The notes under the pieces are model-generated. The model did not search any database and was not told the DNA's origin. It saw nothing but the letters and a program-made list of their open reading frames with translations. A stretch of 42,147 nt of DNA from NCBI GenBank assembly GCA_001803795.1, contig MHEK01000059.1, positions 1 through 42,147 on the forward strand, in the 5' to 3' direction. Of the stretch, positions 8,098 to 38,162 are shown in pieces. How positions within the stretch are numbered: position 1 is the first letter of the stretch; every line of letters begins with the position of its first letter. A program made the translations under genes and the position numbers. Origin of the DNA: Nitrospirae bacterium RBG_16_64_22. Lineage in GTDB: Bacteria; Nitrospirota; RBG-16-64-22.

Positions 8098-8212
8098 TGG
8101 GCGGATCATCATTCGCAGGACCGGAAAGTGATTGCCTCGGGGCGCGAAAACCGAATATCATCCCCGGCGAGTTTCGGCCGAGCACCGTGGCGCGCGATTG
8201 TCGGAGGATCAG

Positions 8213-8515
8213 ATGGACTTCTGGAGCTTTTGGGTTGTCTTCGGCCTCGTTGGCCAGGTCTGCTTCTTCATGCGATTCCTGGTTCAGTGGATCGCCTCAG
8301 AACGCCGGAAGGAATCCGTCATCCCCATCCAGTTCTGGTACTTCAGCCTGGGCGGAAGCGTTATTCTCCTCGTCTACGCCATTCACCGGAAGGACCCCGT
8401 CTTCATCCTGGGCCAGTCCGTCGGGTTCTTCATCTACATCCGGAACCTCTGGCTGATCGCGAAGAAAACACCCGAGAACGTGGGGACAGGGCGGACTCCC
8501 GAAGCCCTCCCATGA
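8213..8515 (+). CDS. lipid A biosynthesis N-terminal (LAB_N) domain membrane protein
   Basis: Internal ATG preceded by GGAGGA. MDFWSFWVVFGLVGQVCFFMRFLVQWIASERRKESVIPIQFWYFSLGGSVILLVYAIHRKDPVFILGQ is typical LAB_N. Confidence 0.75.
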   Translation: MDFWSFWVVFGLVGQVCFFMRFLVQWIASERRKESVIPIQFWYFSLGGSVILLVYAIHRKDPVFILGQSVGFFIYIRNLWLIAKKTPENVGTGRTPEALP

Positions 8516-9783: not shown

Positions 9784-9795
9784 CGACTGAACAGC

Positions 9796-18037: not shown

Positions 18038-18385
18038 CTATTCCGGCTGTGCGACCGTGACCGGCTCTGGCGCGGCCTGGCCCTTCTTGTAGAACGTAAT
18101 GCCGACCCGCTGGATGTGATCCATCACGTCCGGATCGTCGATGTCTCCAAGAATCGACAGGTCGATCGTATACGGAAGGAGCAGGTCGTCCAGTTCCTCG
18201 ATGATTCCGTACACCACCTTTAGCGTCAGATCCGCGCCGCCGCGCAGAGCGAGGTCGATATCGGACCCGTTCTTGTAGATGCCTTTGGCGCGCGAACCAT
18301 ACAGAATTGCCTCATCCACCTGAGGACAGCGGCTCAGAACCGCCGAAATCTTCTGGATGGCCGTGTCCGGCAGACCGTATTTCAT
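18038..18385 (-). CDS. minimal nucleotidyltransferase (MNT, HI0073-like)
   Basis: 115 aa from an internal ATG (MKYGLPDT...). LYGSRAKGIYKNGSDIDLAL carries the GSxxxG...DxD NTase motif. ATGA overlap with the upstream HEPN-type gene. Confidence 0.8.
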   Translation of the reverse strand: MKYGLPDTAIQKISAVLSRCPQVDEAILYGSRAKGIYKNGSDIDLALRGGADLTLKVVYGIIEELDDLLLPYTIDLSILGDIDDPDVMDHIQRVGITFYKKGQAAPEPVTVAQPE

Positions 18386-18807
18386 TCCTGTTCTTCCTTC
18401 TTCAGGTCCTCCAGCTTGATTCGGAGCGCCTCGAATTCGGTTAGATATGCGCTCCGAATGGCGGAAATGATTTGCCCGGCCGTGGCCTCGTCGTACGTGT
18501 GGGAGGTCAGATTCCTGCTCTTGACCATGTCCATCCATGTCTCGCCGTCTTGGATGAGGCCGGATCTGAAAGCGGTGCGGGTCGCGTCTTTGGAGCCATA
18601 CAAGTTCTGAACGCCGCGGCTTTCAAGAAAATCCCTCAGCGTGTTCCATGCCAGCTCATGCGTGAATTCGAAGGCCTGGATCATTCCCTGCCCCTCCAGT
18701 TTCGAGAGCGGCCGTTGCCGGGCCAGTTCCACGGCCTCCTGCAACTGGGAAAGGGCTTTGATGAAGTGATTGAAACGCTGAACCCAGCGGATGTCCTGCC
18801 TGCTCAT
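18382..18807 (-). CDS. HEPN-type nucleotidyltransferase substrate-binding protein (HI0074 family)
   Basis: 141 aa from MSRQDIRWVQRFNHFIKAL.... Rx4H motif in SRNLTSHTYD. It is paired with the MNT gene. Confidence 0.8.
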   Translation of the reverse strand: MSRQDIRWVQRFNHFIKALSQLQEAVELARQRPLSKLEGQGMIQAFEFTHELAWNTLRDFLESRGVQNLYGSKDATRTAFRSGLIQDGETWMDMVKSRNLTSHTYDEATAGQIISAIRSAYLTEFEALRIKLEDLKKEEQE

Positions 18808-18876
18808 GCGCGATCCCTCCCGGAACACCCTGCCAAGACCTTCCCTTGCCGGCCTGCGTCGCCGCGCGGTCCGGGA

Positions 18877-23463: not shown

Positions 23464-23538
23464 TGGTAGGCACGCGGGGTTTCGAACCCCGGACCTCTAC
23501 CGTGTCAAGGTAGCGCTCTCCCCCTGAGCTACGCGCCT
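23464..23538 (-). tRNA. tRNA-Val (anticodon GAC)
   Basis: Folded by hand on the minus strand: AGGCGCG TA GCTC AGGGGGA GAGC G CTACC TTGACAC GGTAG AGGTC CGGGG TTCGAAA CCCCG CGTGCCT A CCA. 7-bp acceptor stem (one G-U), encoded CCA, 75 nt. Confidence 0.9.
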
Positions 23539-24612: not shown

Positions 24613-25286
24613 ACCCGATCCAGTCCGCCGAAGACCTCGCGTCCCGAATCGACGCTTCCCTTCTCTTTTCCGGGGCCACGTTCACCGACGTCCATCGCCT
24701 CTGCCTCGAAGCCCGGCGCGAGCGGTATCACGCCGTCTGCGTCAATCCCGTCTACGTCCCGTCGGCCGTCGACTGGCTGAAGGACTCGGGGATCGCCGTC
24801 GTTGCGGCCGTTTCGTTCCCCCTCGGCGCCGGAACGACGCCGACCCGCGTCATCGAGGCGATGGAAGCCGTCAAGAACGGCGCGGCCGAACTGGACATCG
24901 TGATGCCCCTCGGCCCGTTCAAGTCCGGCCGGCTGGACCTCGTCCGCGTCGACCTCGGGAACCTCATCAGCCTCACGCCGACCGTCGTCCACAAAATCAT
25001 CCTGGAAACGCACCTGCTCGCGGACGAGGAATGGCCCATCGCCGTCGACTTGGCGATCGAAGCCGGAGCACAGTTCGTGAAGAACGGCACGGGGAACGGC
25101 CCGCCCGTCTCGCCAGCCGTCATCCGGCGTCTCCGCCAGCTCGTCGGAACGCGGTGCCGGATCAAGGCCGCCGGCGGAATCCGGACGCTCGAAGATGCGG
25201 AAGCCCTGTTCGAAGCCGGAGCCGACCGGATCGGAACGAGCATGGCCGAGGATATGATGACCCGCTTCAGGGAAAGGCTGGCGTAG
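24609..25286 (+). CDS. deoC: deoxyribose-phosphate aldolase
   Basis: ATGA overlap with the aminotransferase gene. VCVNPVYV, FPLGAG, ELDIVMP, FVKNGTG (Schiff-base Lys region) and IKAAGGIR. Confidence 0.8.
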   Translation: MNPIQSAEDLASRIDASLLFSGATFTDVHRLCLEARRERYHAVCVNPVYVPSAVDWLKDSGIAVVAAVSFPLGAGTTPTRVIEAMEAVKNGAAELDIVMPLGPFKSGRLDLVRVDLGNLISLTPTVVHKIILETHLLADEEWPIAVDLAIEAGAQFVKNGTGNGPPVSPAVIRRLRQLVGTRCRIKAAGGIRTLEDAEALFEAGADRIGTSMAEDMMTRFRERLA

Positions 25287-25289
25287 GCA

Positions 25290-25318
25290 TTGACACCTCC
25301 CCTCTTCCAAGGTATAGT
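25290..25318 (+). promoter_or_regulatory. near-consensus sigma70 promoter of the chemosensory locus
   Basis: TTGACA 25290-25295, 17-nt spacer, TATAGT 25313-25318. About 100 nt of leader precede ATG 25422. Confidence 0.55.
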
Positions 25319-25421
25319 TTTCCTTGAGAAAAGCGGCGCTCTTCCTTTTTCCGACATTTACATGCGGTCAACATAACACCCAGAGGTTCTTCGCAAGATG
25401 AAGGACCCCCACTAAGGATTC

Positions 25422-26834
25422 ATGGCCGGCGAAACGATCCTCGCCATCGACGACAGCCCCACCGTCCGAAAACTCATGGAGATGATCCTCTCCACCGAAG
25501 GGTACCGAATCATCACGGCGGCCGACGGGATGGAAGGGATCGCCAAGGCCAAGGTGGAGGAGCCGGCTGTCATTCTCGTCGACTTCGTCATGCCCAAAAT
25601 GAACGGGTTCCAGGTCTGCAAGGCGATCAAGGAGACCGCGAACCTGCAGGACACGCCGATCATCCTGGTCACGTCGAAGGGCGAAACGGTCGGCTCAAAA
25701 TTCGTCAACTTGTTGGGCATTACGGAGTACTTCACTAAGCCGTTTCAGCCGGAAGACCTCCTCGAAAGGATCCGCGAGGTGATCGACCGGTCGCCCCGGC
25801 CGCAGGCCCTGGCGGCCGCCGAGACGCTCGTCGCCGCAACCGAGACGGTCATTGAGGCCGAACCGGTCGAGGTCGCCGAAACCGTCGAAGAAACCCCGCC
25901 GGCCCCTTCCCCCGAAGCGCCCGCCCTTCCCCCTATCCCGGGACTGGAAGAGCGCGTCGAAGCCCTCGTGCGGGCCACTCTCCAGAGGTTCTTCAAGGAG
26001 GAGTTCCCGTCGATCGTCCGCTCCGTCCTCCCGGCGGGCCTCGGCTCATCGTCCGAGGCGGGCGCACAATCGGGCAAGAACGTTTCCCTCTCCGGGGATC
26101 TCTCCCTCTTCCCCCTGCCCGACATTCTCCAGCTCATTTCGATCCAGAAGAGGACCGGGTGCCTCTGGATCGGTTCCGAAGAGAACCATGCGGAGGCTTT
26201 CTTCGAGGGTGGACTCGTCGTCTTCGCCGCCCTCGAGCACAAGCCCCCGGAGGATCTCATCGGCCGTCTTCTCATGGAATCGTCCAAGATCAACGCGGCC
26301 CAGCTCCGCCACGCTCTCGCCGATTCGGAGAAGTCCGGCGTCCCGCTGGGCCAACTGCTCGTCCGCGGAAGCCTGATCACGGCGGCGGAACTCCTCAGCG
26401 TCGTCCGGATCCAGAGCCAGAGGACCGTCTATCGGGCGCTCGGCTGGAAATCGGGACGGTTCGCCTTCACCCGAGAGCCCCTGCCTGCGGCTTTCGCGGG
26501 GACCGGCCTCTCCCTCAGCGTAGACGACCTGATTCTCGAAGGCGTCCGCCGGATCGACGAGTGGCAGGTCATCTCCCAGAAACTTCCGAGCCTGAACATC
26601 ATCCTCACCCGCCTGATCTCGAACGCGGAAGAGATGGGAAAGATCAATCTGAACCCGTCCGAGCTCAAGGTCCTGCAACTCATCGACGGCAAGCGGGACA
26701 TCAAGGCAATTATCCGCGACAGCGGCATGGGCGACTTCGAGGTCTGCAAGATCCTTTACGTCCTGATGTCCACGAACCTTCTGAAAAAAGTCGGAGAAAC
26801 CGAGCGCTCACGCAGGACTCCCCAGTTTCTTTGA
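25422..26834 (+). CDS. response regulator: N-terminal receiver + Pro/Ala/Glu linker + C-terminal PATAN (DUF4388) domain
   Basis: 470 aa. REC motifs ILAIDDS...LVDFVMP...VTSKG...TKPF. The PATAN/DUF4388 signature is LSGDLSLFPLPDILQLISIQKRTGCLWI ... GQLLV. AAGGA is upstream of the ATG. Confidence 0.8.
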   Translation: MAGETILAIDDSPTVRKLMEMILSTEGYRIITAADGMEGIAKAKVEEPAVILVDFVMPKMNGFQVCKAIKETANLQDTPIILVTSKGETVGSKFVNLLGITEYFTKPFQPEDLLERIREVIDRSPRPQALAAAETLVAATETVIEAEPVEVAETVEETPPAPSPEAPALPPIPGLEERVEALVRATLQRFFKEEFPSIVRSVLPAGLGSSSEAGAQSGKNVSLSGDLSLFPLPDILQLISIQKRTGCLWIGSEENHAEAFFEGGLVVFAALEHKPPEDLIGRLLMESSKINAAQLRHALADSEKSGVPLGQLLVRGSLITAAELLSVVRIQSQRTVYRALGWKSGRFAFTREPLPAAFAGTGLSLSVDDLILEGVRRIDEWQVISQKLPSLNIILTRLISNAEEMGKINLNPSELKVLQLIDGKRDIKAIIRDSGMGDFEVCKILYVLMSTNLLKKVGETERSRRTPQFL

Positions 26835-26895
26835 CGCAGATGAGGGAAGGGGTCTTAACTCACGCTAAAATATGCGCTTTTTAACGGGCGATCCC

Positions 26896-26924
26896 TTGAC
26901 AGCCCGGGGACCCTGTGATACGGT
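26896..26924 (+). promoter_or_regulatory. candidate internal sigma70 promoter upstream of cheY
   Basis: TTGACA 26896-26901, 17-nt spacer, TACGGT 26919-26924. Confidence 0.35.
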
Positions 26925-26976
26925 TTGGCTACCGACCGCAATGCCAGGCAGTGAGTATGTTTCACCCGGAGGAATC

Positions 26977-27339
26977 ATGGCCAATATCTTGATTGCCGAC
27001 GACAGTTATTCCGAGCTCCAAATCTTCCAGGCCACCCTGGAGCCCACCGGTCACCGGCTCATCACCGTCATGGACGGCGAAGCCGCCGAGGAGAAGGTCA
27101 AGGCCGAGCCGATCAACCTCATCATCCTCGACGTCATCATGCCGAAGAAGAACGGGTTCCAGGTCTGCCGGACGCTCAAGACGGACGAAAAGTACAAGCA
27201 CATCCCGATCATCATGTGCACGCAGAAAGACCAGGACAGCGACAAGTTCTGGGGGATGAAGCAGGGCGCGGACGAGTACCTCACGAAACCCTTCAACCCC
27301 GCCGACCTTGTCCGCCTGGTCAAGAAGTACCTTTCCTGA
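26977..27339 (+). CDS. cheY: single-domain CheY-like response regulator (PilH/PixH-like)
   Basis: 120 aa from an internal ATG with GGAGGA upstream. ILIADDS, ILDVIMP, MCTQK and TKPF. Confidence 0.85.
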   Translation: MANILIADDSYSELQIFQATLEPTGHRLITVMDGEAAEEKVKAEPINLIILDVIMPKKNGFQVCRTLKTDEKYKHIPIIMCTQKDQDSDKFWGMKQGADEYLTKPFNPADLVRLVKKYLS

Positions 27340-27365
27340 TCCGCATGGGCCGGAGGGGCCTCAGG

Positions 27366-28235
27366 ATGATATCGAAGTCGATGAAGAGAACGCGAAACCC
27401 GGGAGCCGCCGCGCTCGCCGGGCTGTGCTTGTGGCTTCTTTCGCCGGCGGCGCCGGGCCGGGCCGCTGAAGAGATCGTCTGGACGGGGGAGCGTTCGATC
27501 TACTACGGCGGCCTCCAGGACGCCGCCAACGAGTTCACGCGGCTGACCAAGATCAAAGTGACGGCAATCCCGGGAGGGTGCGGGGCCGCCTCCGCCGGCG
27601 TCAAGCAAGGCAAGGTCGACGTGGGCGGCCTATGCTGCGCCATCAAGGAAGAGGAACTCTCCAAGTTCGGCTTCAAGCACTACCCCATCGGAATCGAGGG
27701 CCTTGCCATCGTCGTCCACCCCTCCAACCCGGTCAAGTCTCTCACCCAACAGCAGGTCAGGGACATTCTCACCGGCAAGATCACGAACTGGAGGGAAGTC
27801 GGCGAGAAGGACCGGCCGATCAAGGTCGTCGCCCGCCCGCATTGCACGGACCGGGAAGGGAACTGGAAGCAGATCGTTCCCGACAAGAAGCTCCTGGCCA
27901 AGGGGCGGATAGACGTCAAGGAAGACCAGGACGTCCTTCTGGCCGTGAAGGACCACGAGAACTCCATCGGCATCATCGGGCTGAACATGGTCAATCCCCG
28001 CTTCGCGCGGGCGATTGCGATCGACGGAATCGTGCCAGGGCGCCCGTCGCTCATCGACGGCACCTATCCCTGGAAGATCCAGAACTCCCTCATCCTGGCT
28101 TCGAACAGCTCCGCCGCCGCGAAGAAATTCGTCGACTTCATTCTAGGCGACGGGAGAAAGCTCCTCCACAAGGACCTGGTCTTCCTCGACGAGGTGAAGC
28201 CCGCCTCTGCCAAGAAGACCGGAAAGGGAAAGTAG
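27366..28235 (+). CDS. exported PstS-family (PBP_like_2) periplasmic substrate-binding protein, orphan
   Basis: Signal peptide AAALAGLCLWLLSPAAPGRAA. Hallmark LTQQQVRDILTGKITNWREVG of PstS-like proteins. GGAGGGG lies 7 nt before ATG 27366 (alternative ATG 27345). No ABC permease or ATPase genes are nearby. Confidence 0.7.
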   Translation: MISKSMKRTRNPGAAALAGLCLWLLSPAAPGRAAEEIVWTGERSIYYGGLQDAANEFTRLTKIKVTAIPGGCGAASAGVKQGKVDVGGLCCAIKEEELSKFGFKHYPIGIEGLAIVVHPSNPVKSLTQQQVRDILTGKITNWREVGEKDRPIKVVARPHCTDREGNWKQIVPDKKLLAKGRIDVKEDQDVLLAVKDHENSIGIIGLNMVNPRFARAIAIDGIVPGRPSLIDGTYPWKIQNSLILASNSSAAAKKFVDFILGDGRKLLHKDLVFLDEVKPASAKKTGKGK

Positions 28236-28245
28236 GCTCCGCGCG

Positions 28246-28728
28246 ATGGCCGAGTCGACATTCGTTCAGGACGCTCCCGCCGCCGAAGAGGCCTCTCTGG
28301 GCTTCTGCACTTTTCAGATCGGCGGAGAGTTCTACGGCCTGGACATTGTCCTCGTCCAGGAGGTGATCCGTTCGCAGAAGGTCTTCCCCGTACCGACGAC
28401 GCCCCCGTACGTTCTCGGCGTCATTAATCTTCGGGGAACCATCATCCCTATAGTCGACATCAAGCGCGTTCTCATGCAGACCCCCTGGCGGGAAACCCCC
28501 GACACGCGCCTTCTGATCCTTCAGCAGGATCAGACCCTTGTCGGATGGGCCGTCGACGCCGTCGGAGACATCGCGTGGCTGCCCGTCTCGCGCGTCGAGC
28601 CCTTTCAGACCCGCCGTGACGAGCCGGGGTTCAAGTACGTCGATCGGATCGGAAAGGTGTCGGAACAGACGGCGCTCGCCCTCGTTGACGGGCCTCGCCT
28701 GATTGCTGATCTTCGGATTCGAGGATAG
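28246..28728 (+). CDS. cheW: CheW-like coupling protein
   Basis: 160 aa. FQIGGEFYGLDIVLVQEVI...VLGVINLRGTIIPIVD. Confidence 0.85.
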   Translation: MAESTFVQDAPAAEEASLGFCTFQIGGEFYGLDIVLVQEVIRSQKVFPVPTTPPYVLGVINLRGTIIPIVDIKRVLMQTPWRETPDTRLLILQQDQTLVGWAVDAVGDIAWLPVSRVEPFQTRRDEPGFKYVDRIGKVSEQTALALVDGPRLIADLRIRG

Positions 28729-28761
28729 GACTCTGGCAACGGCGGCGGAAAAGAACGGACC

Positions 28762-28785
28762 GTCCGCGCCCATCTGAGCGCGGAC
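28762..28785 (+). other. perfect 8-bp GC-rich stem-loop in the cheW-mcp spacer (no U-tract)
   Basis: GTCCGCGC ccatctga GCGCGGAC. It is followed by the GGAGGAGG RBS of mcp, so a terminator is unlikely; it is possibly an mRNA processing or stability element. Confidence 0.35.
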
Positions 28786-28809
28786 AGGACCCGATCGGAG
28801 GAGGTCGTT

Positions 28810-30672
28810 ATGGCTCAGACCACGAAGGAACGCATCATTCCGGCCCAGCAGTCGGCCGGGCTCGGCATCGGGGCGAAGATCGGGATCATCATCGCCCTCC
28901 TGGCCGTCCTCATCGGCATCGCGACAGCCGTATACCTCTACGCCAAGATGAGCGGGACCCTCACGGGCGAGATCGAGAAGCGCGGCCGGGCCCTGGCCTC
29001 GGGACTCGCGACGAGCGCCACGAACCCGATCCTGACCAACTCGAAGAGCGTCCTCAAAACGATCGCCAATGACATCCTCAAAGAGGAAGCCGTCGACTAC
29101 GTTGTGATCCTGAACGACGAAGGCAAGTCTCTCTTCAACTCCTTTGAGGGCGAGAAGATCCCGGATGAAGTCGCCAACGCCGCGAAGACCGCAAACAAGA
29201 CCGCCGTCGACAGACAGAACCTCAAACTGAGGGGAATCGAAATTCTCAACATCAGCGCCCCGGCCGTGGAAGGGAAAGTCGGCTCTGTCCACATCGGCAT
29301 GTCGACAGCCGGAATCGCGCTCCTCGTACGCAACACGATCTTCGTGATACTTACCGTGTTCACCTTCGTTCTCATCGGCGGGTGGGCCATCGCGTATGTC
29401 GTCTCCAACCGCATCATCGTCGCCCCGATCCAGGACGTCATGTCCGTCGCCCGGTCGGTCGGACAGGGAGACCTGTCCCGCGAGGTCAAGGTAACCAGCC
29501 AGGACGAGATCGGTCAGCTCGGCGCCACGGTCAACGAGACGGTCAAGCGGCTGCGCCACCTGGTCCAAACGGAGGACGAGCGGAACCAGATGCAGCGCCA
29601 GGTCATGGACCTCCTCTCGATCGTCTCCGCGGCCGCGGAAGGAGACCTGACCAAGCAGGCCGTCGTCACGGCCGACGCCCTCGGATCGCTGGCCGACGCC
29701 TTCAACCTGATGGTCGACGGTCTGACGACCCTGATCAACCAAGTGAAGGACGCCTCTCTCGAGATCGACGGCGCCTCCCGGAAGGTCCTGTCCGCCGCCG
29801 ACGGTATCCGCCGCAGCGCGGAGGAGCAGACCGTCCACATCGGCCAGACGGCCCGCACCGTCAACGCGATGAGCCAGTCTATGACGCAGATGGCCCAGAG
29901 CGCCGAGTCCGCGGCCCAGTCATCCGCCGTGGCCACCGATACGGCGCTCAAGGGCGAAAATTCCGTGGCCGAAACGATCCGCGGCATGCACCGGATCCGA
30001 AGCACCGTTCAAACGACGTCCAAGAAGGTCAAGAGCCTCGGCGAACGGTCGATGGAAATCGGCGCCATCATCGAAGTGATCAACGACATCGCCACGCAGA
30101 CGAACCTCCTGGCGTTGAATGCCGCCATCGAGGCCGCCAGGGCCGGCGAACACGGCAAGGGATTCGCCGTCGTCGCGGACGAAGTGCGGAAACTGGCCGA
30201 ACGATCCGCCAAAGCAACGAAGGACATCGCCAACCTCATCAAGGGAATCCAGGTCGAGACGAACGAGGTGGTCACTGCCATGGAAGAAGGGACGCGGGAG
30301 GTGGAGGAAGGAACCCGCCTTGCCGACCAGGCCGGATCCGCCCTCAAGGAGATCGAGACGGTGGTCCGCCGAACGGCCCAATCCGTCACCGAGATCTCCC
30401 AGGCCGCCCGCCTTCAAGCGAAATCCACCGAAGAGGTCGTCCGAACCATGGAGGGAATGTCCACGGCGACGCGTCAGGCGGTCGAAAACGTCCGCGGTGC
30501 CTCCGAGACCATCCGCGGTCTGGCCGAGCTATCAGCCCGTCTCGTCTCGTCAATCGGTCGGTTCAGGGTCAAGGAGAAGAGAGCCGAGCCCGCCGGCGTG
30601 TCTGCCTCTTCCGCCCGGCGGCCCGCGCTTCAGGAAGAAGAGATCGACCTGGGGTTTTTGGAAACGAAATAA
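28810..30672 (+). CDS. methyl-accepting chemotaxis protein (2 TM, ~150-aa periplasmic domain, HAMP, MA domain)
   Basis: 620 aa. GGAGGAGG RBS. Highly conserved hairpin tip [47 protein letters not shown]. Confidence 0.9.
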
Positions 30673-30676
30673 GAGC

Positions 30677-30716
30677 GGGGGAATCGGTGCGTCGGTGAAT
30701 GGGTTGATGGGGAGAA
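30677..30716. repeat. octad tandem array (CGGTGAAT/GGGTTGAT type), 5 units
   Basis: gggggaat cggtgcgt cggtgaat gggttgat ggggagaa, starting 4 nt after the mcp stop. It is the G-rich complement of the ATTCACCG/ATCAACCC arrays. Confidence 0.8.
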
Positions 30717-30764
30717 TCCAGCCCCCCAACCACCCGGCCGCCCGGTTCTTCGATCGGAGCGTGA

Positions 30765-33281
30765 ATGGCTGGAAAGTTTGACAAATCGGCCTTGATCGAG
30801 TTCTTCCTGATCGAGGCCGAAGATCACATCCAGAACCTCACGAACGGCCTGCTCGCAATCGAGAAGGCGCCGGAGAACCGGGACGTCCTCGACGAGCTGT
30901 TCCGGACGGCCCATACGCTGAAGGGCTCCGCGGCCATGATGGGCTACAGCGTCGTGAGCGAGATCGCCCACCGCATGGAGGACGCGCTGAGCCAGGTCCG
31001 CTCGGGCGAGCGTACCGCCGACACCAAGATCGTCAACTTCGCGTTAGAGACCCTCGACTCGATCAAGCAGGTCATCCAGGACATCACACAGCGAAAAGAA
31101 GAAGACCCGCGCCTCGCGGGCCGGGTCAACGCGAGGTTCCAGGAGTTTTTCCACGGCGGTCCGCCGGCCGAGCCCGTCCCGGTCCCGTCCGCGGCGCCTC
31201 CGCCCCCTTCCGCCGCATCCGTCTCATTGCCTCCCAAGGCGCCCCCCGCCCCATCCGCTGTTCCGCCCGAGACGGCGCCTTCCGCACCGCCTCTCACCCT
31301 GAAGACCTCCATCGACGAAGCCAAGAAGGAGGGCGTCGTCGAAAAGCGCGAGTGGGGAAAGCGGGCAACGGACGTCTCTGAGATCGAGAAGCAGGTCATC
31401 CGCGTCAACATCAACCAGCTTAACAACCTGATGAATCTGGTCGGCGAGCTCGTCATCAAGCGGAACCATCTCGAGCGCCAACTCCACTTCGTCCAGGCCG
31501 TCAAGGAACAGCTTTCTTTCAGCCAGGCGCGTCTTCTCAAGACTGTCCGGGGCTTCGAGGAGAAGTACGAGTTCTCCCTCCCCGCCGCCGCGCCGGCTCC
31601 GGCGGCCAAGCCGGAATTGGGTTCGTTCACCGGCGACTTCTTCGACATGGAGTTCGACCGTTACGACGATTTCAACCTCCTCTCTCGCCAACTCGTCGAG
31701 ATCACGAACGACCTCAACGAGGTCATGAACGAATTCAACTCCTTCTTCGACGGGTTCGACGAGGAGACGTCCCACATCTCGATGATCACGAGCCGCCTGC
31801 AGGAAGAGATCACGGCGGCCCGCATGGTCGAGCTCGACCGGCTCTTCCTCCGGTTCTCGAGGCCCGTCCGGGACCTGGCCCAGGCCGAAGGAAAGGCCGT
31901 CTCCATCATCATCGCCGGCGGCGAAACGAAGATCGACAAAACAGTCTTCGAGATGATCTCCGACCCCCTCATGCACCTCGTCCGCAACGCGGTCTCCCAC
32001 GGGATCGAGCCCCGCGAGGAACGGATCCGCCGGGGCAAGGAGCCGACCGGCACGGCCATTCTTCGGGCCCGCCACGAGGGGAACTCGATCATCCTCGAGG
32101 TCGAGGACGACGGGCGCGGGATCGATCCGGAGCTTCTGCGCACGGAGGCCGTGCGCCGTGGATTCCTGAGCCCGGCCGCCGCCAAGGAGCTCTCCGATTC
32201 CGAGGCGATCAACCTCATCTTCCTTCCGGGCTTCTCGACGCGCCGTGAGGTCACCGAGATCTCCGGCCGCGGCGTCGGCATGGACGTCGTGAACACCGAT
32301 ATCGCCAAGGTCAACGGACGGATCGAGGTCCAGACCGAGCTGGGCGTGGGAACCAAGTTCAGCATCAAGCTCCCGCTCACGCTCGCGATCTCCCAGGCGC
32401 TCATCGTCCGGTGCGGCGGCAGCGAGTTCGCCATCCCCCTAGCCACCGTCGAGGAGACGACCCGCTTCACGCTCCGCGACATCCAGACGGTCGCCGGCGA
32501 GGAGGTCGTCAACCTGCGCGGCAGGTTCCTCCCCCTCATCCGGCTCGAGAATCTCTTCGGAATGCAGCCCCTTCAGCCCCCCGACCGGTACACAAAATAC
32601 CCCTCCCTGATTCTCGGAGTCCTCGAGAAGCGTGTCGGCCTGATGGTCGAGGAGATCGTCGGCCGGGAGGACATCGTCGTCAAGGGGATGGGAGAGTTCT
32701 TCCGCGACGTCCGGATCTTCTCCGGGGCGTCCGTCTCCGGCGAAGGAACGGTCCGGCTCATCATCGACTCCTTCAACCTCGTCGGACAACAGGGAATCGC
32801 CGAGAAGGCGAAGGCCACGTTCATCAAGGGTGAATCCGCCGCGGCCGCTCCCGAAGCCGTGGCGCCGGCCGGCGCGATCGCTCTCGCCGAGGAGGCCCCC
32901 TCCGGGCCTCCCTCGGTCCTCGTAGTCGACGACTCGATCAGCATCCGGAAGTACGTCAGCCACGTCCTCGAGCGCGTCGGCTTCAAGGTCGAGGTCGCCG
33001 TCCACGGGCTCGAAGCGCTGGAAAAGATGTCCGGTCGGAAGTTCAACCTCGTCATCACGGACCTCGAAATGCCCGTCATGCACGGATACGAGCTGATCGC
33101 CGAGCTCAAACGGTCCCCGAAGACGGCCAGGCTTCCCATCGTCGTCCTCACGTCGCGGGCCGGCGAGAAGCACCGCCAGAAGGCCCTGGAGATGGGCGCG
33201 CAGGACTACATCGTCAAGCCGTTCGACGAACAGACGCTCATCGACATCACACGGCGGCTCACGCAGACCGTCGCGGCCTGA
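30765..33281 (+). CDS. cheA: hybrid chemotaxis histidine kinase CheA-REC (Hpt, extended dimerisation region, HATPase, CheW-like, C-terminal receiver)
   Basis: 838 aa. Hpt FRTAHTLKGSAA. N/G boxes HLVRNAVSHGIE, DDGRGID, GRGVGMDVV. CheW-like region. C-terminal VLVVDDS...ITDLEMP...LTSR...VKPF. Confidence 0.9.
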   Translation: MAGKFDKSALIEFFLIEAEDHIQNLTNGLLAIEKAPENRDVLDELFRTAHTLKGSAAMMGYSVVSEIAHRMEDALSQVRSGERTADTKIVNFALETLDSIKQVIQDITQRKEEDPRLAGRVNARFQEFFHGGPPAEPVPVPSAAPPPPSAASVSLPPKAPPAPSAVPPETAPSAPPLTLKTSIDEAKKEGVVEKREWGKRATDVSEIEKQVIRVNINQLNNLMNLVGELVIKRNHLERQLHFVQAVKEQLSFSQARLLKTVRGFEEKYEFSLPAAAPAPAAKPELGSFTGDFFDMEFDRYDDFNLLSRQLVEITNDLNEVMNEFNSFFDGFDEETSHISMITSRLQEEITAARMVELDRLFLRFSRPVRDLAQAEGKAVSIIIAGGETKIDKTVFEMISDPLMHLVRNAVSHGIEPREERIRRGKEPTGTAILRARHEGNSIILEVEDDGRGIDPELLRTEAVRRGFLSPAAAKELSDSEAINLIFLPGFSTRREVTEISGRGVGMDVVNTDIAKVNGRIEVQTELGVGTKFSIKLPLTLAISQALIVRCGGSEFAIPLATVEETTRFTLRDIQTVAGEEVVNLRGRFLPLIRLENLFGMQPLQPPDRYTKYPSLILGVLEKRVGLMVEEIVGREDIVVKGMGEFFRDVRIFSGASVSGEGTVRLIIDSFNLVGQQGIAEKAKATFIKGESAAAAPEAVAPAGAIALAEEAPSGPPSVLVVDDSISIRKYVSHVLERVGFKVEVAVHGLEALEKMSGRKFNLVITDLEMPVMHGYELIAELKRSPKTARLPIVVLTSRAGEKHRQKALEMGAQDYIVKPFDEQTLIDITRRLTQTVAA

Positions 33282-33315
33282 GAGGCGCGGCTTCGACGCG
33301 CTTGGAGACCCGTTC

Positions 33316-33777
33316 ATGCCCGAGACATCCTCATCCGGCCCCGGACGCCTTGTCCTCTTCAATCTCGACGCCCAGCATTTCGGCTTCCGGATCGACAACC
33401 TGATCGAGATCGGGACCGTGGGGGCCGTTCGCCCCGCGTCCGATCTTCCCGGCTACGTTTCCGGAATCACGCTGTCGCGAGGGCGCGAAGTGGCGATTCT
33501 CGACCTCCGCTCCATCCTCGGCCTGCCGGCGCGCCGCCTTTCCCCATCCACGCCTCTCATCGTCATGCGCATCGGTGCCCAAGCCCTCGGGATCGCCGTG
33601 GACGCCGTTTCCAATATCCACACCGCTCCCGGAACGTGGCACCCGTTCCCAGCGGGCGCCGTGCCCGAAGACCGCAACCCGTATACGGCCGTCACGCGAA
33701 TCGACGACGACCTCCTTTTGATCCTGGATGAGCAGATGCTCCTGCCCATCGCCCGCGCCGTCAAAAAAGCCGCATGA
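33316..33777 (+). CDS. cheW: CheW-like coupling protein
   Basis: 153 aa. LVLFNLDAQHFGFRIDNLIEI...VSGITLSRGREVAILDL. Confidence 0.8.
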   Translation: MPETSSSGPGRLVLFNLDAQHFGFRIDNLIEIGTVGAVRPASDLPGYVSGITLSRGREVAILDLRSILGLPARRLSPSTPLIVMRIGAQALGIAVDAVSNIHTAPGTWHPFPAGAVPEDRNPYTAVTRIDDDLLLILDEQMLLPIARAVKKAA

Positions 33778-34235
33778 AAACTCAAACCTTCCCGGGCATC
33801 GAACCCGTACTCACGTTCAGGGTCGGCCCCCGCTTTCTCGGAATCCCGATCTCCAAGATCCTCGAAATCCTTCCGACTCCCATGCCGACACCCGTCCCGC
33901 TCGCCTTCGCCCATGTCGAGGGAATCGTGGAATACCGGAAGGCCCTCATCCCCGTCTATAACCTGTGCCGCCGCCTCTCCGTGCCATCCGACCCGTCGAT
34001 TTCGCCACACCTGATCGTGATCCGGGACGGAGACGCCTTGTTTGGCGTGACGGTGGACGAAATCGGAAAAATCATCTCGCAGCCCGCGCCCGCGGATCTG
34101 CCCGCGGACCGGTCGGTCCACGGACTGCCGCCCGGGCTCCTCCAGTTCGCCGCGGACGACAGCGGAAGCGTTGTCCCCGTTATCCTGCCGCAGGCATTGC
34201 TTGCGGCCCGGAACACCATTCGAATGGAAGCCTAA
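33774..34235 (+). CDS. cheW: CheW-like coupling protein (divergent)
   Basis: 153 aa. ATGA overlap with the preceding cheW. LTFRVGPRFLGIPISKILEI...VEGIVEYRKALIPVYNL. Confidence 0.75.
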   Translation: MKTQTFPGIEPVLTFRVGPRFLGIPISKILEILPTPMPTPVPLAFAHVEGIVEYRKALIPVYNLCRRLSVPSDPSISPHLIVIRDGDALFGVTVDEIGKIISQPAPADLPADRSVHGLPPGLLQFAADDSGSVVPVILPQALLAARNTIRMEA

Positions 34236-34259
34236 CCCGTCCGCATTCGGCGGAAAGGA

Positions 34260-35636
34260 ATGGGAGGGATCATGAAACCGAAACTCCTCTTGGCGGATGA
34301 CAGCATCACCATCCAGAAAGTGGTGGAACTGATATTCTCGAACGAAAACTTCGAGATCATCACCGTCAACAATGGGGCCGACGCCCTCGCGAAAGCGAAG
34401 GCCGAGCGCCCCGATATCGTCCTGGCCGACATCTACATGCCAAAGCTGGATGGATACGAACTTTGCCAGGAGATGAAGAAGGATCCCGATGTCGCCGGCA
34501 CTCCCGTCATTCTTCTCGTCGGGGCGTTCGAGAGCTTTGACGAAAGCCGCAGCGCCGCCGTCGGGGCGACCGGACACATCACAAAGCCGTTCGAATCGCA
34601 GGAGCTCGTCGGGAAGGTGCGCGAGACGATCGAAGCCGCGGCGGCGGCCCGATCCGCCAAGGAGGCTCCCCGCCCTTCCGAACCCGCGGCCGCCGAGGAC
34701 CAGTGGACCGTGATCGACATCACATCGGGGGCCCGTCCGCTTCCGGCACCCCAAGCCCCCGAGGAGGAGGCCGACCTATGGAAGGACGTCTCGCTCATCG
34801 GAGAAACCCCCGCGGCTGAATTCTACCCGGAGGAAAAGGCCGCCCCCCGCCCGCCGGCCTCCGAACCTCAAGGCGAGGTATTCGAGATCTCCGTCGAGGA
34901 AAAAGCCGCCCCGGCCGTCGAGGCGCCGCCCCAGGCGCAGCCGGCCGCCCACACGACCCTTCACGGAACGCCCGTCACGGTCTATGAAGACGCCCGCGAA
35001 GAAAAAGCCGAGACCCCCGAGGTCCGCCCCCCGATCGAGCTTTCCGCCTCGGAACAGCCCTTCGAGCTCCAGTCGTTCGAGAGTCTCGACGAGGCCCATC
35101 TCCTCGGCGCCGAATTCGGCGTTCCGCCCCGGATCGAGCCCGCGGCCGTCCCCCCGCCCAAGGCCGGCGAAGAGAAGATCGAGAAGCTGCAGACAGCCGA
35201 GATGTACGAGTTCCTCGCCCCGGAGGAAATTCTCACCGAAGAGTCGATCGAGATGGTTCCGTCCGCCGTCGAAGAACCTTCTCTCCCAGAGAAACCCCCG
35301 ATCGCGGCGCCTTCCGCGGCCGCGCCGATGGTCGATCTGGATGTCACCCTCGAAGCGATTCCCGTCCCTCCGCCTCCCGCGGAAGAAGAGTTCGCGGAGG
35401 TTGTCATTCCAGAGGAACTCCCTCCACCGCCCCAGGCCCAGGCGGCCGCCGTCCCGTCGGGGGAGGAACTCGCGGCTCTGATCGAGCCGATGCTTCGCCG
35501 GATCGTGGAGGAACTCCTGCCGAACATCTCTCGGGAGACCCTGGACCGTGTCGCGTGGGAAGTGGTCCCAGACCTCGCCGAGGTCCTCATTTCGAAGGAG
35601 ATTCAGAACCTCAAGCAGGGAATGTCGAACAACTAG
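34260..35636 (+). CDS. response regulator: receiver + long acidic Pro/Ala/Glu-rich region + short conserved C-terminal helical module
   Basis: 458 aa. REC motifs LLADDS...LADIYMP...LVGAF...TKPF. The tail ends LRRIVEELLPNISRETLDRVAWEVVPDLAEVLISKEIQNLK. The start may be ATG 34272 (MKPKLL...). Confidence 0.75.
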   Translation: MGGIMKPKLLLADDSITIQKVVELIFSNENFEIITVNNGADALAKAKAERPDIVLADIYMPKLDGYELCQEMKKDPDVAGTPVILLVGAFESFDESRSAAVGATGHITKPFESQELVGKVRETIEAAAAARSAKEAPRPSEPAAAEDQWTVIDITSGARPLPAPQAPEEEADLWKDVSLIGETPAAEFYPEEKAAPRPPASEPQGEVFEISVEEKAAPAVEAPPQAQPAAHTTLHGTPVTVYEDAREEKAETPEVRPPIELSASEQPFELQSFESLDEAHLLGAEFGVPPRIEPAAVPPPKAGEEKIEKLQTAEMYEFLAPEEILTEESIEMVPSAVEEPSLPEKPPIAAPSAAAPMVDLDVTLEAIPVPPPPAEEEFAEVVIPEELPPPPQAQAAAVPSGEELAALIEPMLRRIVEELLPNISRETLDRVAWEVVPDLAEVLISKEIQNLKQGMSNN

Positions 35637-35655
35637 CGACACGGGACAACCGACA

Positions 35656-36402
35656 ATGATCCGCCGCCTTTCGAGAGCCATCCCAATTCTTGCGTGCCTG
35701 TCGGCGTGCCTTCCTCTCGCCGCGTCCCATACCGCGGCGGCGAAGGAGGCGTCGGCCGCCTCTTCCGTCGTCAATCCGCAGGCCCTTCTTTTCAAGATGG
35801 AAGAGGCCTACAACCACATCCAGTCGTACCGGGCGGTCGTCTTGAGCCGGGAACGCGTCGGGGGCGTTCTTCAACCCGAGGACAAAACCCTCTTCGAGTT
35901 CAAGAAGCCTTTTGAGCTGTTCATGACTTGGCTGGACGGACCGAAGAAAGGGAACCGGCTATACTTCCGAACCGGCTGGAACGAAGACCGGATCCGCCTC
36001 CGGCAGGCGGGAATCCTCGGAGCCATCCCGATCAATCTGGATCCGGCGTCCTCGCTCCTCAAGAACGGGACGAACCACACGATCCGGGAGGCGGGTCTCG
36101 GCTTCTTCATCCAGACCATGACGTCCAACGCACGGCGGGCGCAGGCAGCCGGAATTCTCGAAATTCGTCCCCTGGGGAAACAGACCGTTGAGGGGCGCCC
36201 CGTCCAGGCCTTCGACGTGCACATCGGATCGAGACCGGGGAACGGCTACTACTGCCGGAGGCTTCTCGTCGACATCGACGCCGAGATCCCCCTTCCCATC
36301 CGCTTCACGACATTCGACTGGGACGGCAATATCGTGGAGCAGTTCGTTTACCGGGACCTGACGCTCAACCCGCCCCTGCAAGACCTCGAACGGAAGATCT
36401 GA
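35656..36402 (+). CDS. exported DUF1571 / LolA-like (outer-membrane lipoprotein-sorting fold) protein
   Basis: Internal ATG. Signal peptide MIRRLSRAIPILACLSACLPLAA. SYRAVVLSRERVGGVLQPEDKTLFEFKKPFELFMTWLDGPKKGNRLYF matches the DUF1571 pattern from memory. Confidence 0.6.
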   Translation: MIRRLSRAIPILACLSACLPLAASHTAAAKEASAASSVVNPQALLFKMEEAYNHIQSYRAVVLSRERVGGVLQPEDKTLFEFKKPFELFMTWLDGPKKGNRLYFRTGWNEDRIRLRQAGILGAIPINLDPASSLLKNGTNHTIREAGLGFFIQTMTSNARRAQAAGILEIRPLGKQTVEGRPVQAFDVHIGSRPGNGYYCRRLLVDIDAEIPLPIRFTTFDWDGNIVEQFVYRDLTLNPPLQDLERKI

Positions 36403-36417
36403 GCGCCGTCCGGCGCT
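36402..36417. terminator. short GC hairpin between convergent genes (weak terminator candidate)
   Basis: AGCGCC gtcc GGCGCT immediately after the DUF1571-like gene stop. There is no clear U-tract. Confidence 0.25.
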
Positions 36418-36462
36418 GGCTCCAGCCGAAGAACATCGTCAGGGGCCTTCGGGCGCAAGTCC

Positions 36463-36684
36463 CTACCACTTGTGCCCGCCGCAAGGACAGTCCAGGTACG
36501 CCTCGGACGCCCGTCCCTGAAGGACTTCATTCATCATCCTCTCCCACAGCATAACGTACTCGTCTTCGCTCAACCGATACCCGAACGCCCGCAGAGCCCC
36601 CTCGGTATCGGCCGCAAGTCTCGTCCGGAACGAAGCATCGACGGCCAGCCGATTCACGACCTCACGATAGGCGCTTGTGATCAT
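36463..36684 (-). CDS. small NHLP/Nif11-leader-like protein (possible RiPP precursor or Os1348-like NHLP-clan protein)
   Basis: 73 aa from ATG 36684, with AAGGAGG 6 nt upstream. VVNRLAVDASFRTRLAADTEGALRAFGYRLSEDE resembles NHLP-type leader helices. The C-terminus is ...EAYLDCPCGGHKW. Confidence 0.55.
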   Translation of the reverse strand: MITSAYREVVNRLAVDASFRTRLAADTEGALRAFGYRLSEDEYVMLWERMMNEVLQGRASEAYLDCPCGGHKW

Positions 36685-37100
36685 CTCCAACCTCCTTTTG
36701 TATGGGTCTTCAGCCTCCTTACTGGGCGGACACCATAGCACGAAACGAAAGTCCCGCCCGTGACCCCAATCACGCCTGGCGATATCACGCCACGGAAAGA
36801 AACAAGTAGGGTGCCAACGACACAGGAAAAAGGCAACATGTTGATATCACAGTGGTTTCTTCCATCACCGAAGAACGCCGTTGAGCAACCCTGTCTACGA
36901 TCGTGTATGGGGTGTATGGAACCGTCAACAGGCGTCCATCACCGACCATGGGATGAACATGCGCCGCGTATTTGGTTCGACATTGCATACCCGGATCGTC
37001 TCGCCCGGGCGAGGATCGCCGTCAGTGGGTTCATCCGTCCGAAGAATCTCGTCCCAATATCTCGAACCAGCCAGCCCGCGTGATCTGATATCATGAAAAA

Positions 37101-38162
37101 ATGAGCGCGCGAGGATCCTCTCCACACCTTCCCGACGTCGCGGCGATTTCCTTCCCGGCGCTTGCGGCGGCGGTTGAAGAACTCGGCCTGCCCCTCTACC
37201 GGGCCCGCCAGATCCGCCGGTGGATCGACGCGCGCGGCGCGACGAGCTTCGCCGAGATGACGGACCTCCCAAAGGCCCTCCGCGAACAGCTCCAGACGCG
37301 GGTGCGGCTCTTCACGCCGGATATCATTCGGGAGAATACGGCCCCGGATGGGACCCGCAAGTTCCTCCTCGAGCTCGAAGACGGCCTGACGGTCGAATGC
37401 GTTCTCATTCCGGACAAAGACCGGTTGACCCTCTGCCTCTCCACGCAGGTCGGTTGTCCCGTCAATTGTTCCTTCTGTCTGACCGGACGGATGGGTCTCG
37501 TGCGGAACCTTGCGACCGCGGAGATCGTGGGACAGGTCCGGTCCGTGCGGGCGCGAACGCCGCGACGGATCTCGAACATCGTCCTGATGGGAATGGGCGA
37601 GCCGCTTCTAAACTTCGAGAACACGGCCGACGCGCTTCGCCGCCTGACGGACCCGATGGGATTCGGATTCTCGTCGCGCCGGATCACGCTCTCCACCGCC
37701 GGAATCATTCCGGGCATAGAGCGCCTCGGCCGCGAAGGCCCTCACGTCAATCTCGCCGTCTCGCTCAATGCAACGACGGACGAACTCCGGACACGTCTGA
37801 TTCCCATCAACCGGAAATGGCCGATCGGCCGGCTTCTCGCGGCGCTCCGCGCCTACCCCCTCCCGCCCCGGAGGCGGATCACGATCGAGTACGTTCTTCT
37901 CGGCGGGGAGAATGACACGGACGAGGACGCCCGCCGGCTCGCGGCTCTTCTCAAGGGCCTGCGGTGCAAGGTCAACCTGATCCCCTTCAACCCCTTCCCG
38001 GAATCGTCCCACCGGACCCCCGACCGGAGAAGGGTCGAATGCTTTCAGCGAATCCTGACCGAGAAACGGTATTCGGCATTCATCCGGGAGAGCCGCGGGA
38101 AGGAAATCCGTGCCGCCTGCGGCCAGCTCTGGGCGGAGGAGAAAAAGTCCGGGGCAAGTTGA
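37101..38162 (+). CDS. rlmN: 23S rRNA (adenine2503-C2)/tRNA methyltransferase RlmN (radical SAM)
   Basis: 353 aa. YRARQIRRWI, CLSTQVGCPVNCSFCLTG (CxxxCxxC), MGMGEPLLN and the C-terminal AACGQL. Confidence 0.9.
   Translation: MSARGSSPHLPDVAAISFPALAAAVEELGLPLYRARQIRRWIDARGATSFAEMTDLPKALREQLQTRVRLFTPDIIRENTAPDGTRKFLLELEDGLTVECVLIPDKDRLTLCLSTQVGCPVNCSFCLTGRMGLVRNLATAEIVGQVRSVRARTPRRISNIVLMGMGEPLLNFENTADALRRLTDPMGFGFSSRRITLSTAGIIPGIERLGREGPHVNLAVSLNATTDELRTRLIPINRKWPIGRLLAALRAYPLPPRRRITIEYVLLGGENDTDEDARRLAALLKGLRCKVNLIPFNPFPESSHRTPDRRRVECFQRILTEKRYSAFIRESRGKEIRAACGQLWAEEKKSGAS

Follow-up and report, generated by a model that had tools for sequence, protein, structure and literature searches.

In this study, a ten-gene chemosensory cluster (g01 to g10, 25422-36402, + strand) was analysed in contig MHEK01000059.1 of Nitrospirae bacterium RBG_16_64_22; the whole 42,147-nucleotide stretch is hereafter called the window. 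The cluster is predicted to be one operon of an uncultured groundwater/sediment Nitrospirota bacterium, and the pathway that it encodes is probably a non-flagellar chemosensory one, with outputs directed at cell polarity and presumably also at type IV pili. Judged by analogy with studied systems, such an output is likely. The initial annotation of this DNA had called the output unknown. That view needs qualifying: the ninth gene product, described there as a receiver (REC) with a low-complexity tail, is by sequence a RomR homologue, and this homology points to the MglA/MglB polarity module, following the logic of the Frz system of Myxococcus.

The RomR homologue is encoded by g09 (34260-35636, +; the likely start, 34272, is colinear with RomR) and consists of a REC domain, a linker and a C-terminal helix termed RomR-C. 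With a putative RomR N-terminus as the probe, proteins 70-95% identical to it were retrieved from Myxococcus, Corallococcus, Archangium and Anaeromyxobacter; the comparisons were made with the retrieved Myxococcus protein, P0110. Because its Val17, Asp53 and Glu108 carry the residue numbers published for RomR, P0110 was taken as the RomR N-terminus. The g09 REC aligned with it over 120 amino acids (aa) without gaps, at 51% identity and 74% positives. It was 50-55% identical to the RomR-type RECs of Myxococcus and Anaeromyxobacter versus 28-35% to all other RECs tested, including the other three of the locus. With the RomR-type RECs it also shares a Gly at the position of CheY T87 and a KPFESQ motif that holds the RomX-contacting Glu; the T87 equivalent is Thr in g01, g02 and the g06 REC. 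When aligned to E. coli CheY, all four receivers of the locus (g01, g02, the g06 REC and g09) possess the DD of the acidic pocket, the D57-equivalent Asp and the Lys of the KPF motif.

The remainder of the protein matches RomR in its build. Published descriptions of RomR give a REC domain, an unstructured Pro-rich linker of variable length and a Glu-rich C-terminal part, and g09 fits all three (PMC3441718). Its linker of about 277 aa contains 18% Glu, 17% Ala and 17% Pro, and its RomR-C helix reads RVAWEVVPDLAEVLISKEIQNLK. Among the orthologues, whose full-length members span approximately 330-589 aa, the tails vary in length and the linker is unconserved; their C-termini follow the consensus (E/D)(R/K)VAWEV(I/V)PxLAExLIxEEIERLK. 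W41, P45, A48, E55 and I56 were invariant in the alignment of RomR-C (35439-35636 in the window) with that of the orthologues, and several Glu residues were invariant or nearly so. In g09 the Trp stands 25 residues before the C-terminus and in RomR 26, where it corresponds to W394 of 420 residues, which is essential for MglC binding (PMC12719032). A RomR-C profile search also recovered the motif from Myxococcales and Polyangiaceae; its matches were all fragments shorter than 120 aa and included no full-length Myxococcus RomR. PDB sequence searches returned no RomR chain; a RomX structure, 8ZNA, is mentioned in the literature.

As a separate observation, RomR-C weakly resembled the Pfam family DUF2497: 12 of 21 alignment members matched, with a best E value of 0.014 and all matches below threshold. 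Two RomR-C fragments carry the JGI name 'PopZ'. DUF2497, which we take to be the PopZ pole-organising family, has in common with RomR-C a disordered acidic Pro-rich region and a short C-terminal helix with the pattern W...P.L.E..(I/V)..EIER.

The g06 CheA was used to collect related loci from species-representative genomes. The search yielded 80 loci, almost all in Nitrospirota metagenome-assembled genomes (MAGs) from groundwater, sediment and soil; their open reading frames (ORFs) were called and labelled by phmmer, with the window domains and E. coli CheA, CheB, CheR, CheW, CheY, CheZ, MotA, MotB and Tar as queries. Two groups were distinguished, namely 46 Nitrospiria-type loci (CheA 48-92% identical) and 32 Thermodesulfovibrionia-/Desulfuromonadales-type loci (CheA 34-38%). 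The two nearest loci, L001 and L002, have a CheA that is 92% identical to that of the window. A CheA-REC gene was present in 46/46 and 32/32 loci of the two groups and a methyl-accepting chemotaxis protein (MCP) gene in 44/46 and 23/32, and a REC-PATAN gene opens the cluster in 37/46 and 21/32. A REC with the g09 C-terminal motif was found in 42 of the Nitrospiria-type loci and in none of the second group, and three or more CheW genes in 30/46 and 0/32. The CheW-CheW pair after CheA was likewise detected in 30 of the 46; loci without a detected pair were inspected for a fusion of the pair to CheA, and it was not fused. The second group retains REC-PATAN, CheY, CheW and CheA-REC, with the MCP gene divergently placed.

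Two members of the cluster are far less widespread. The binding protein gene occurs in 4/46 and 5/32 loci and the DUF1571 gene in 2/46 and 0/32. The conserved unit is therefore eight genes, with the binding protein an optional cassette member and DUF1571 private to the immediate lineage of the window. Conservation of the exact ten-gene order, an issue raised by the initial annotation, thus failed for the block as a whole and held for eight genes over the 46 loci. Neither CheR nor CheB was found in either group (0/46 and 0/32 for each); over all 80 loci the counts were zero for CheR and one for CheB (L040, a KSB3 genome). Since both are absent from the cluster, adaptation by methylation is not part of it. 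The flanks in the relatives contain housekeeping genes (valS, nadC, birA, coaX) and no pil or romX candidates.

Gene order provided a second line of evidence for g09. In Myxococcus xanthus, romR (MXAN4461) is flanked by the valyl-tRNA synthetase gene MXAN4460 and by MXAN4462, a gene with two CheW domains; no kinase gene flanks it, and the RomR kinase was unidentified in 2007 (PMC2034494). The order CheW, CheW, romR-like gene, valS was observed in 35 of the 43 Nitrospirota loci that have a romR-like gene (within L004-L066, e.g. L004:13574-17954), and in those 35 loci valS lies 14-399 bp downstream of the romR-like gene on the same strand. In the window, L001 and L002, DUF1571 and rlmN stand in place of valS; the window keeps the CheW pair. 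This shared CheW-CheW-romR-valS order is independent evidence for the orthology of g09 and RomR, and suggests that the Myxococcus romR locus is a remnant of such a che cluster. We propose more tentatively that the Nitrospirota cluster keeps the ancestral arrangement, in which RomR is a direct CheA substrate, and that the two-CheW gene-romR-valS stretch of M. xanthus is what remains of it.

The partners of RomR were also found in the phylum. Pairs of mglB and mglA were detected in Nitrospirota by scanning for the MglA motif YTVPGQVFY and then with protein guidance. The MglA query was 100% identical to PDB 6HJH; an MglB query was used only to locate the ORF. The Nitrospirota MglA scored 365 bits against M. 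xanthus MglA, and the MglB ORF matched PDB MglB entries at E 5e-59. At least three MAGs have both. In CAYUSP01, the che-romR cluster and mglBA (L017 and L202) lie about 120 kb apart on one 781-kb contig, CAYUSP010000002.1; both are likewise present in MHDZ01 (L032 and L205) and DMKB01 (L044 and L207). The conserved flanks of mglBA are housekeeping only, with no pil or romX candidates. We found no literature that discusses MglA or RomR in Nitrospirota, one MglA paper naming the phylum for the Rup family only, and none that mentions RomR together with PATAN.

The other regulators of the cluster are g01 and g02. The product of g01 (25422-26834, +) has a Response_reg domain at residues 6-118 (E 6.7e-24) and a DUF4388/PATAN domain at residues 224-382 (E 9.5e-30), with an acidic Pro/Ala linker between them and a C-terminal extension; no solved structure matched its PATAN part by sequence. 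This REC-PATAN order is the reverse of that in PixG and PatA, where an N-terminal PATAN precedes the REC (PMC11181946), and the PATAN-REC order was seen in 0/78 related loci. The second regulator, g02 (26977-27339, +; ORF opening at 26872), is a CheY of 120 aa (Response_reg E 5.4e-25; REC from ORF residue 39) with relatives of 119-121 aa.

Three CheW genes, the last two translationally coupled, had been reported in the initial annotation, and both points were borne out by the Pfam domains and by the ATGA read at 33774-33777, where the g07 stop and the g08 start overlap. The most canonical of the three is g04 (28246-28728, +; CheW E 1.6e-28), which contains the NLRG motif and shares 30% identity with E. 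coli CheW; g07 (33316-33777, +; E 3.4e-20) and g08 (33774-34235, +; E 3.2e-20) are divergent. With 20-23% identity among themselves, the three CheWs are old paralogues rather than recent copies; g07 is 20-25% identical to the other CheWs.

The receptor g05 (28810-30672, +) showed a weak sCache_3_2 match together with HAMP and MCPsignal domains. Two transmembrane segments and two HAMP-like units were recognised, the periplasmic domain is about 130 aa long, and the signalling domain belongs to heptad class 40H. Compared with E. coli Tar, which we take to be of class 36H, it contains two symmetric 14-aa insertions around the hairpin and retains one of the four methylation-site Glx pairs; an NWETF-type C-terminal pentapeptide was not found in g05. 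Receptors of class 40H also serve flagellar systems, which speaks for the flagellar reading weighed below.

The hybrid CheA-REC kinase g06 (30765-33281, +) is composed of Hpt, HATPase_c, a P5 of the CheW-like kind and, at its C-terminus, a REC. There is one Hpt, with His50 in HTLKGS, and a long dimerisation region spans about 135 residues (about 210-344). In alignments with CheA of E. coli and T. maritima, the kinase core matches from about residue 329-344 onward; Pfam revealed no P2 domain. Tfp-class CheAs in Cyanobacteria and Chloroflexota have been reported to possess long dimerisation domains (PMC10782961). The family motif ELEFDRYD, which reads FDMEFDRYD in g06, occurs in the CheA or CheA-REC of Thermodesulfovibrionia, Chloroflexota and Meiothermus, and its recurrence in Deinococcota and Chloroflexota indicates that the g06 family is wider than Nitrospirota. 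The Deinococcota loci with this motif (L294, L310, L312, L317, L321 and L323; Deinococcales, Meiothermus and Thermaceae) have the order MCP, MCP, CheA-REC, REC; the Chloroflexota locus L311 has REC-PATAN, CheY, CheW, CheA.

From these components the following pathway may be outlined. A periplasmic signal would reach the 40H receptor g05, possibly via the secreted Cys-lined binding protein g03, and the receptor would control g06 via g04 and perhaps also g07 and g08; the domains of these proteins were observed, and the functions are assigned from them. Phosphorylated CheA would then pass its phosphate to the three regulators encoded in the cluster, g01, g02 and g09. In Synechocystis, PATAN binds PilB1 and PilC, and PixG and PixH are antagonistic (PMC11181946). 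By analogy with the cyanobacterial PixG and PixE, the PATAN domain of g01 may bind the pilus extension motor, and g02 is likely to act as an antagonist or phosphate sink, as does PixH. As for g09, Myxococcus RomR is polar and is linked to MglA via RomX, which is bound by the REC, and to MglC/MglB via RomR-C; g09 might make the same connections. The phosphorylated protein would relocate and reset MglA/MglB polarity, as proposed for Myxococcus. Termination might be achieved by REC sinks, including the REC of CheA itself, in a cluster that has neither CheR nor CheB.

Several observations weigh against this pathway. Phosphotransfer from CheA to g01, g02 and g09 is deduced purely from gene linkage, and no expression data were found, as the sequencing-run search matched DNA metagenomes only. 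The domain order of g01 is opposite to that of the only experimentally studied PATAN regulators, which makes the transfer of function uncertain. The RomR REC comparison rests on N-terminal fragments, and the identity of RomR-C on published descriptions plus the Myxococcales fragments. In addition, mglBA and the cluster occur together in at least three related MAGs, none of which is the genome of the window, L001 or L002, and neither the window nor the 10-kb surroundings of the 80 che loci contained a pilus, mglA, mglB or romX gene.

A function in polarity or adhesion unrelated to motility is the main rival. The cluster would then be a pathway of alternative function (ACF type) with no part in steering motility, in which the PATAN and RomR-like regulators organise the pole, division, adhesion or matrix production; we consider this rather unlikely. 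In its favour, the sole CheA-REC of two Magnetobacteriaceae (Thermodesulfovibrionia) genomes, which has a g06-like architecture, is labelled 'cheaACF' (PMC10782961, supplementary table). An attempt was made to tie g06 to this label via Magnetobacterium casensis, but the motif scan did not recover that genome, and orthology to g06 could not be shown. The sub-threshold resemblance of RomR-C to DUF2497 and the two fragments named PopZ would also suit a pole-organising role, as would the statement, cited in PMC4316618, that RomR and MglA of Bdellovibrio serve prey invasion and not surface motility. No motility gene is linked to the cluster in the window and flanks examined. On the other side, all experimentally studied PATAN regulators of chemosensory clusters act on type IV pili, and all 26 surveyed genomes with intact RomR, MglA and MglB also have type IV pilus genes (PMC3441718).

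In the version of the initial annotation, the cluster is a Tfp system of the Pix/Pil type, with ten co-functioning genes and two atypical output proteins of unspecified target. The order of PATAN regulator, CheY, CheW, MCP and CheA-REC without CheR/CheB agrees with this, as do the long dimerisation region of g06, a trait of Tfp-class CheAs in Cyanobacteria and Chloroflexota, and the Chloroflexota locus that combines ELEFDRYD with the REC-PATAN, CheY, CheW, CheA order. It is nevertheless improbable, given that the PATAN regulator is reversed and the PATAN-REC order absent from 78 relatives, g06 has a single Hpt, the MCP lacks a photoreceptor module, the binding protein occurs patchily, DUF1571 is unconserved, and g09 belongs to an identifiable family. 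Of the two extra output-type proteins that it placed at the 3' end, g09 stands, as a RomR homologue, and g10 is most likely a lineage-specific addition. A flagellar (F-class) chemotaxis system using CheR and CheB encoded elsewhere is already disfavoured and very improbable: the analysis covered the window and not the rest of the genome, and cultured Nitrospirota also carry F1-class CheAs (PMC10782961), but those CheAs are about 630-653 aa long with a 63-aa dimerisation domain, unlike g06, which has a C-terminal REC and no detected P2; the first regulator contains PATAN and the cluster a RomR homologue; no flagellar gene was seen in any flank examined; and the 80 loci held no CheR or CheZ and a single CheB (L040), CheC, CheD, CheX and CheV not having been searched for.

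A non-flagellar pathway acting on polarity and probably pili would bear on a long-standing question in Myxococcus. RomR is a central organiser of switchable front-rear polarity there, and genetic data indicate a D53 phosphorylation cycle; none of the literature that we found after the 2007 report names its kinase. The presence of a RomR homologue with a CheA-REC, an MCP and three CheWs in one predicted operon in dozens of Nitrospirota genomes supplies a testable candidate kinase class. If the ancestral arrangement proposed above is true, RomR would have originated as a chemosensory output regulator, with a missing kinase of the CheA type. The shared microsynteny also offers an evolutionary explanation for the CheW gene beside Myxococcus romR. 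Moreover, the cluster would join two known chemosensory routes to pilus polarity, the PATAN regulator and the RomR/MglA module, in one operon, and would extend both to Nitrospirota, where we found neither described in the literature. Every component family is already known; the combination was not found described in the searched literature.

The binding protein g03 is a smaller, separate lead: it represents a rare clade and is always attached to the MCP cassette. The gene (27345-28235, +; ORF opening at 27216, likely start 27345 or 27366) lies between g02 and g04, which agrees with the insertion between cheY and cheW noted in the initial annotation, and its product has a signal peptide and a PBP_like_2 domain (E 3.3e-27). 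The description "PstS-like" proved apt for the fold and not for the ligand. The predicted structure (AlphaFold2, pLDDT 78.6) is that of PstS, and it matched best the PstS of C. perfringens, with target-normalised TM scores of 0.85 to 4GD5 and 0.86 to 4Q8R; the TIGR02136 score was 112.4 bits, below the cut-off of 206.6. Residue alignments with solved and canonical PstS proteins showed that the PstS motifs are replaced: GSST by GERS, GGSG by GGCG, SR or SD by LCC, and SRxxxSGT by ARPHCTDRE. Four conserved Cys and a His lie in GGC, GGLCC and RPHC; they are invariant in the close subfamily, and relatives at 30-40% identity still show the Cys signature. Since Cys4-His replaces the phosphate-binding residues of PstS, phosphate is improbable as the ligand. 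No pstCAB genes were found near g03. The fold search was also consulted for a ligand; it returned the PstS fold only, with no ligand hint.

The g03 subfamily is rare. Approximately 14 clusters at 90% identity matched at E < 1e-42, and among 1.84 billion representatives there were 21 matches at E 1e-30, three of them above 50% identity. The wider clade includes the relatives P0230-P0239, P0353, P0354, P0357, P0369, P0371, P0375 and P0424; its close subfamily was seen only in Nitrospirota, and every context seen for the subfamily was CheY-binding protein-CheW-MCP. In another Nitrospirota assembly (L282:7718-13455), CheY, a Cys-rich binding protein, CheW and MCP are followed by no CheA; after the MCP come two genes (263 and 421 aa) for which Pfam gave nothing above threshold, and then a FIMAH-domain gene. 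The MCP of L047, a locus with the binding protein, is 46% identical to g05 in the sensor domain and 39% in the signalling domain, whereas MCP orthologues of loci without the binding protein are 22-31% identical in the sensor domain and about 60% in the signalling domain. The periplasmic domain of the MCP thus follows the binding protein and not its own signalling domain, indicating that g03 and the MCP form a sensor cassette. The Cys-lined site, as read from the alignments, suggests a thiophilic metal or metalloid ligand; it is equally possible that the four Cys form two structural disulfides. Together with the matching sensor domain of the MCP, this Cys4-His protein of PstS fold may constitute a periplasmic chemosensor of a new kind, whose thiophilic ligand could be a metal, metalloid or sulfur species.

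The last gene, g10 (35656-36402, +; ORF opening at 35548), starts 19 bp after g09 and encodes a DUF1571 protein (E 8e-28) of the LolA/RseB-like kind (MucB_RseB 24.4 bits, cut-off 22.3) with a lipoprotein-type signal (LSAC). Besides the window, only L001 and L002 have this gene; in other relatives its place is taken by valS or different genes, so that the linkage of DUF1571 to che genes is not conserved. Most likely g10 is a lineage-specific addition, and it may be a passenger. A single-sequence AlphaFold2 model of its fold was unusable (pLDDT 33). The 700-bp gap between DUF1571 and rlmN contains a 92-aa ORF (36463-36741, -) with a sub-threshold Frankia_peptide match (27.6 bits, cut-off 48).

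The layout of the locus agrees with the predicted operon and with the gene order given in the initial annotation. The ten co-directional ORFs have high third-position G+C in a window of about 64% G+C, and with the likely starts the intergenic gaps range from -4 to 142 bp. All ten genes stand in the order claimed and carry the stated domains in Pfam, and the chemosensory core is complete, the MCP signalling domain, CheW and the Hpt, dimerisation, HATPase_c and P5 domains of CheA all scoring above the Pfam cut-offs. The promoter that it had placed upstream was found as a consensus match only: TTGACA-17-TATAGT (25290-25318, +) agrees at 11 of 12 consensus positions, lies 104 nt 5' of the g01 start and is the sole sigma-70-like match in the 12 kb from 25000 to 37200. 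Its statements that CheR and CheB are missing in and beside the locus, and pilus, flagellar and gliding genes from the window, were upheld by Pfam scans, in which none of these appeared among the other plausible ORFs of the window. Rfam and tRNA scans found no RNA families or tRNAs inside the locus. The upstream neighbours are a class IV aminotransferase gene and an aldolase-like gene, followed further upstream by thrS-infC-rpmI-rplT-pheS-pheT; downstream lie RlmN, ScpB, ScpA and citrate synthase genes. A sequencing-run search found the DNA of the window in sediment, soil and groundwater metagenomes.

Several other features of the window were recorded. The sole RNA gene found is a tRNA-Val (anticodon GAC) at 23464-23538 (-), just upstream of thrS. 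A 799-aa protein (5698-8097, +) combines GAF domains, HisKA, HATPase_c and a C-terminal HD_5 in a fusion of a histidine kinase with a phosphohydrolase-type output. It is followed by an envelope-modification run (8128-12218, +) comprising a LAB_N/PAP2/PEMT-like fusion, an ArnT/PMT_2-type glycosyltransferase and a family 2 glycosyltransferase, with a stop/start overlap. Between pheT and pheS (18038-18828, -), a nucleotidyltransferase (Polbeta/NTP_transf_2) and an NTase_sub_bind (HEPN-like) protein are arranged like an MNT-HEPN toxin-antitoxin pair. Also noted were a PIN-domain ORF (4234-4617, +) and a protein with staphylococcal-nuclease and lamin-tail domains (14611-15486, -), which is probably a secreted or surface nuclease.

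The cluster was also compared with known systems. With M. xanthus RomR, g09 shares the succession of a REC, a disordered linker rich in Pro and a short C-terminal helix that is rich in Glu and has an invariant Trp and Pro, as well as the V17, D53 and E108 equivalents; its linker differs in being rich in Glu and Ala besides Pro. At the level of the locus, two CheW domains precede romR in both organisms and valS comes next in most Nitrospirota relatives. The two CheW domains reside in one gene in M. xanthus, whereas the window has two translationally coupled genes, and the Nitrospirota gene sits in a full cluster with MCP and CheA-REC, whereas no kinase gene flanks the M. xanthus gene (PMC2034494). 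The Frz system of M. xanthus, of the ACF class, is similar in that CheA-REC signalling ends at the RomR-MglA/MglB polarity module, by which the motility machines are made to switch poles. It differs in having the cytoplasmic receptor FrzCD, FrzF (CheR), FrzG (CheB), the dual-REC FrzZ and FrzX, none of which is in the window, and in that romR is unlinked to frz.

A counterpart in gene order is the cyanobacterial Tax1/Pix system (PixG-H-I-J-L, Tfp class), which has a PATAN regulator, a single-domain CheY, CheW, MCP and CheA-REC, no CheR/CheB and a CheA with a long dimerisation region. A hybrid CheA with a C-terminal REC, no P2 and two CheY-like regulators are features of the Tfp class (PMC10782961, PMC11181946), and cyanobacterial Tfp-class systems have been reported without linked CheR/CheB (PMC11181946). 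In contrast to the cluster, PixG is PATAN-REC, PixJ is a GAF photoreceptor where g05 has a periplasmic sCache-like sensor and a binding protein, and Pix contains no RomR, extra CheW pair or binding protein. The Pil-Chp system of Pseudomonas aeruginosa (PilG-H-I-J-K, ChpA-B), which controls pilus polarity, likewise combines CheW, an MCP and a hybrid CheA-REC with a pair of antagonistic CheY-type regulators. It differs in that PilG and PilH are single-domain proteins and the Hpt domains of ChpA are numerous, and in that it includes PilK (CheR) and ChpB (CheB) and lacks PATAN and RomR; PilG is, to our knowledge, a single-domain CheY without PATAN. The proposal that the core mirrors PixG-H-I-J-L and PilG-H-I-J/ChpA is thus sound for the gene order and the hybrid CheA, and not for the first regulator, which is reversed relative to PixG and has no PATAN counterpart in PilG.

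Finally, in binding-protein chemoreception a periplasmic solute-binding protein presents its ligand to an MCP, as MBP does to Tar in E. coli and PstS to CtpL in P. aeruginosa. In a putative parallel, g03 is separated from the downstream MCP gene only by cheW and co-varies with the MCP sensor; no transporter genes are linked to it. Unlike in the PstS-CtpL pair, the phosphate-binding residues have given way to the Cys4-His set.

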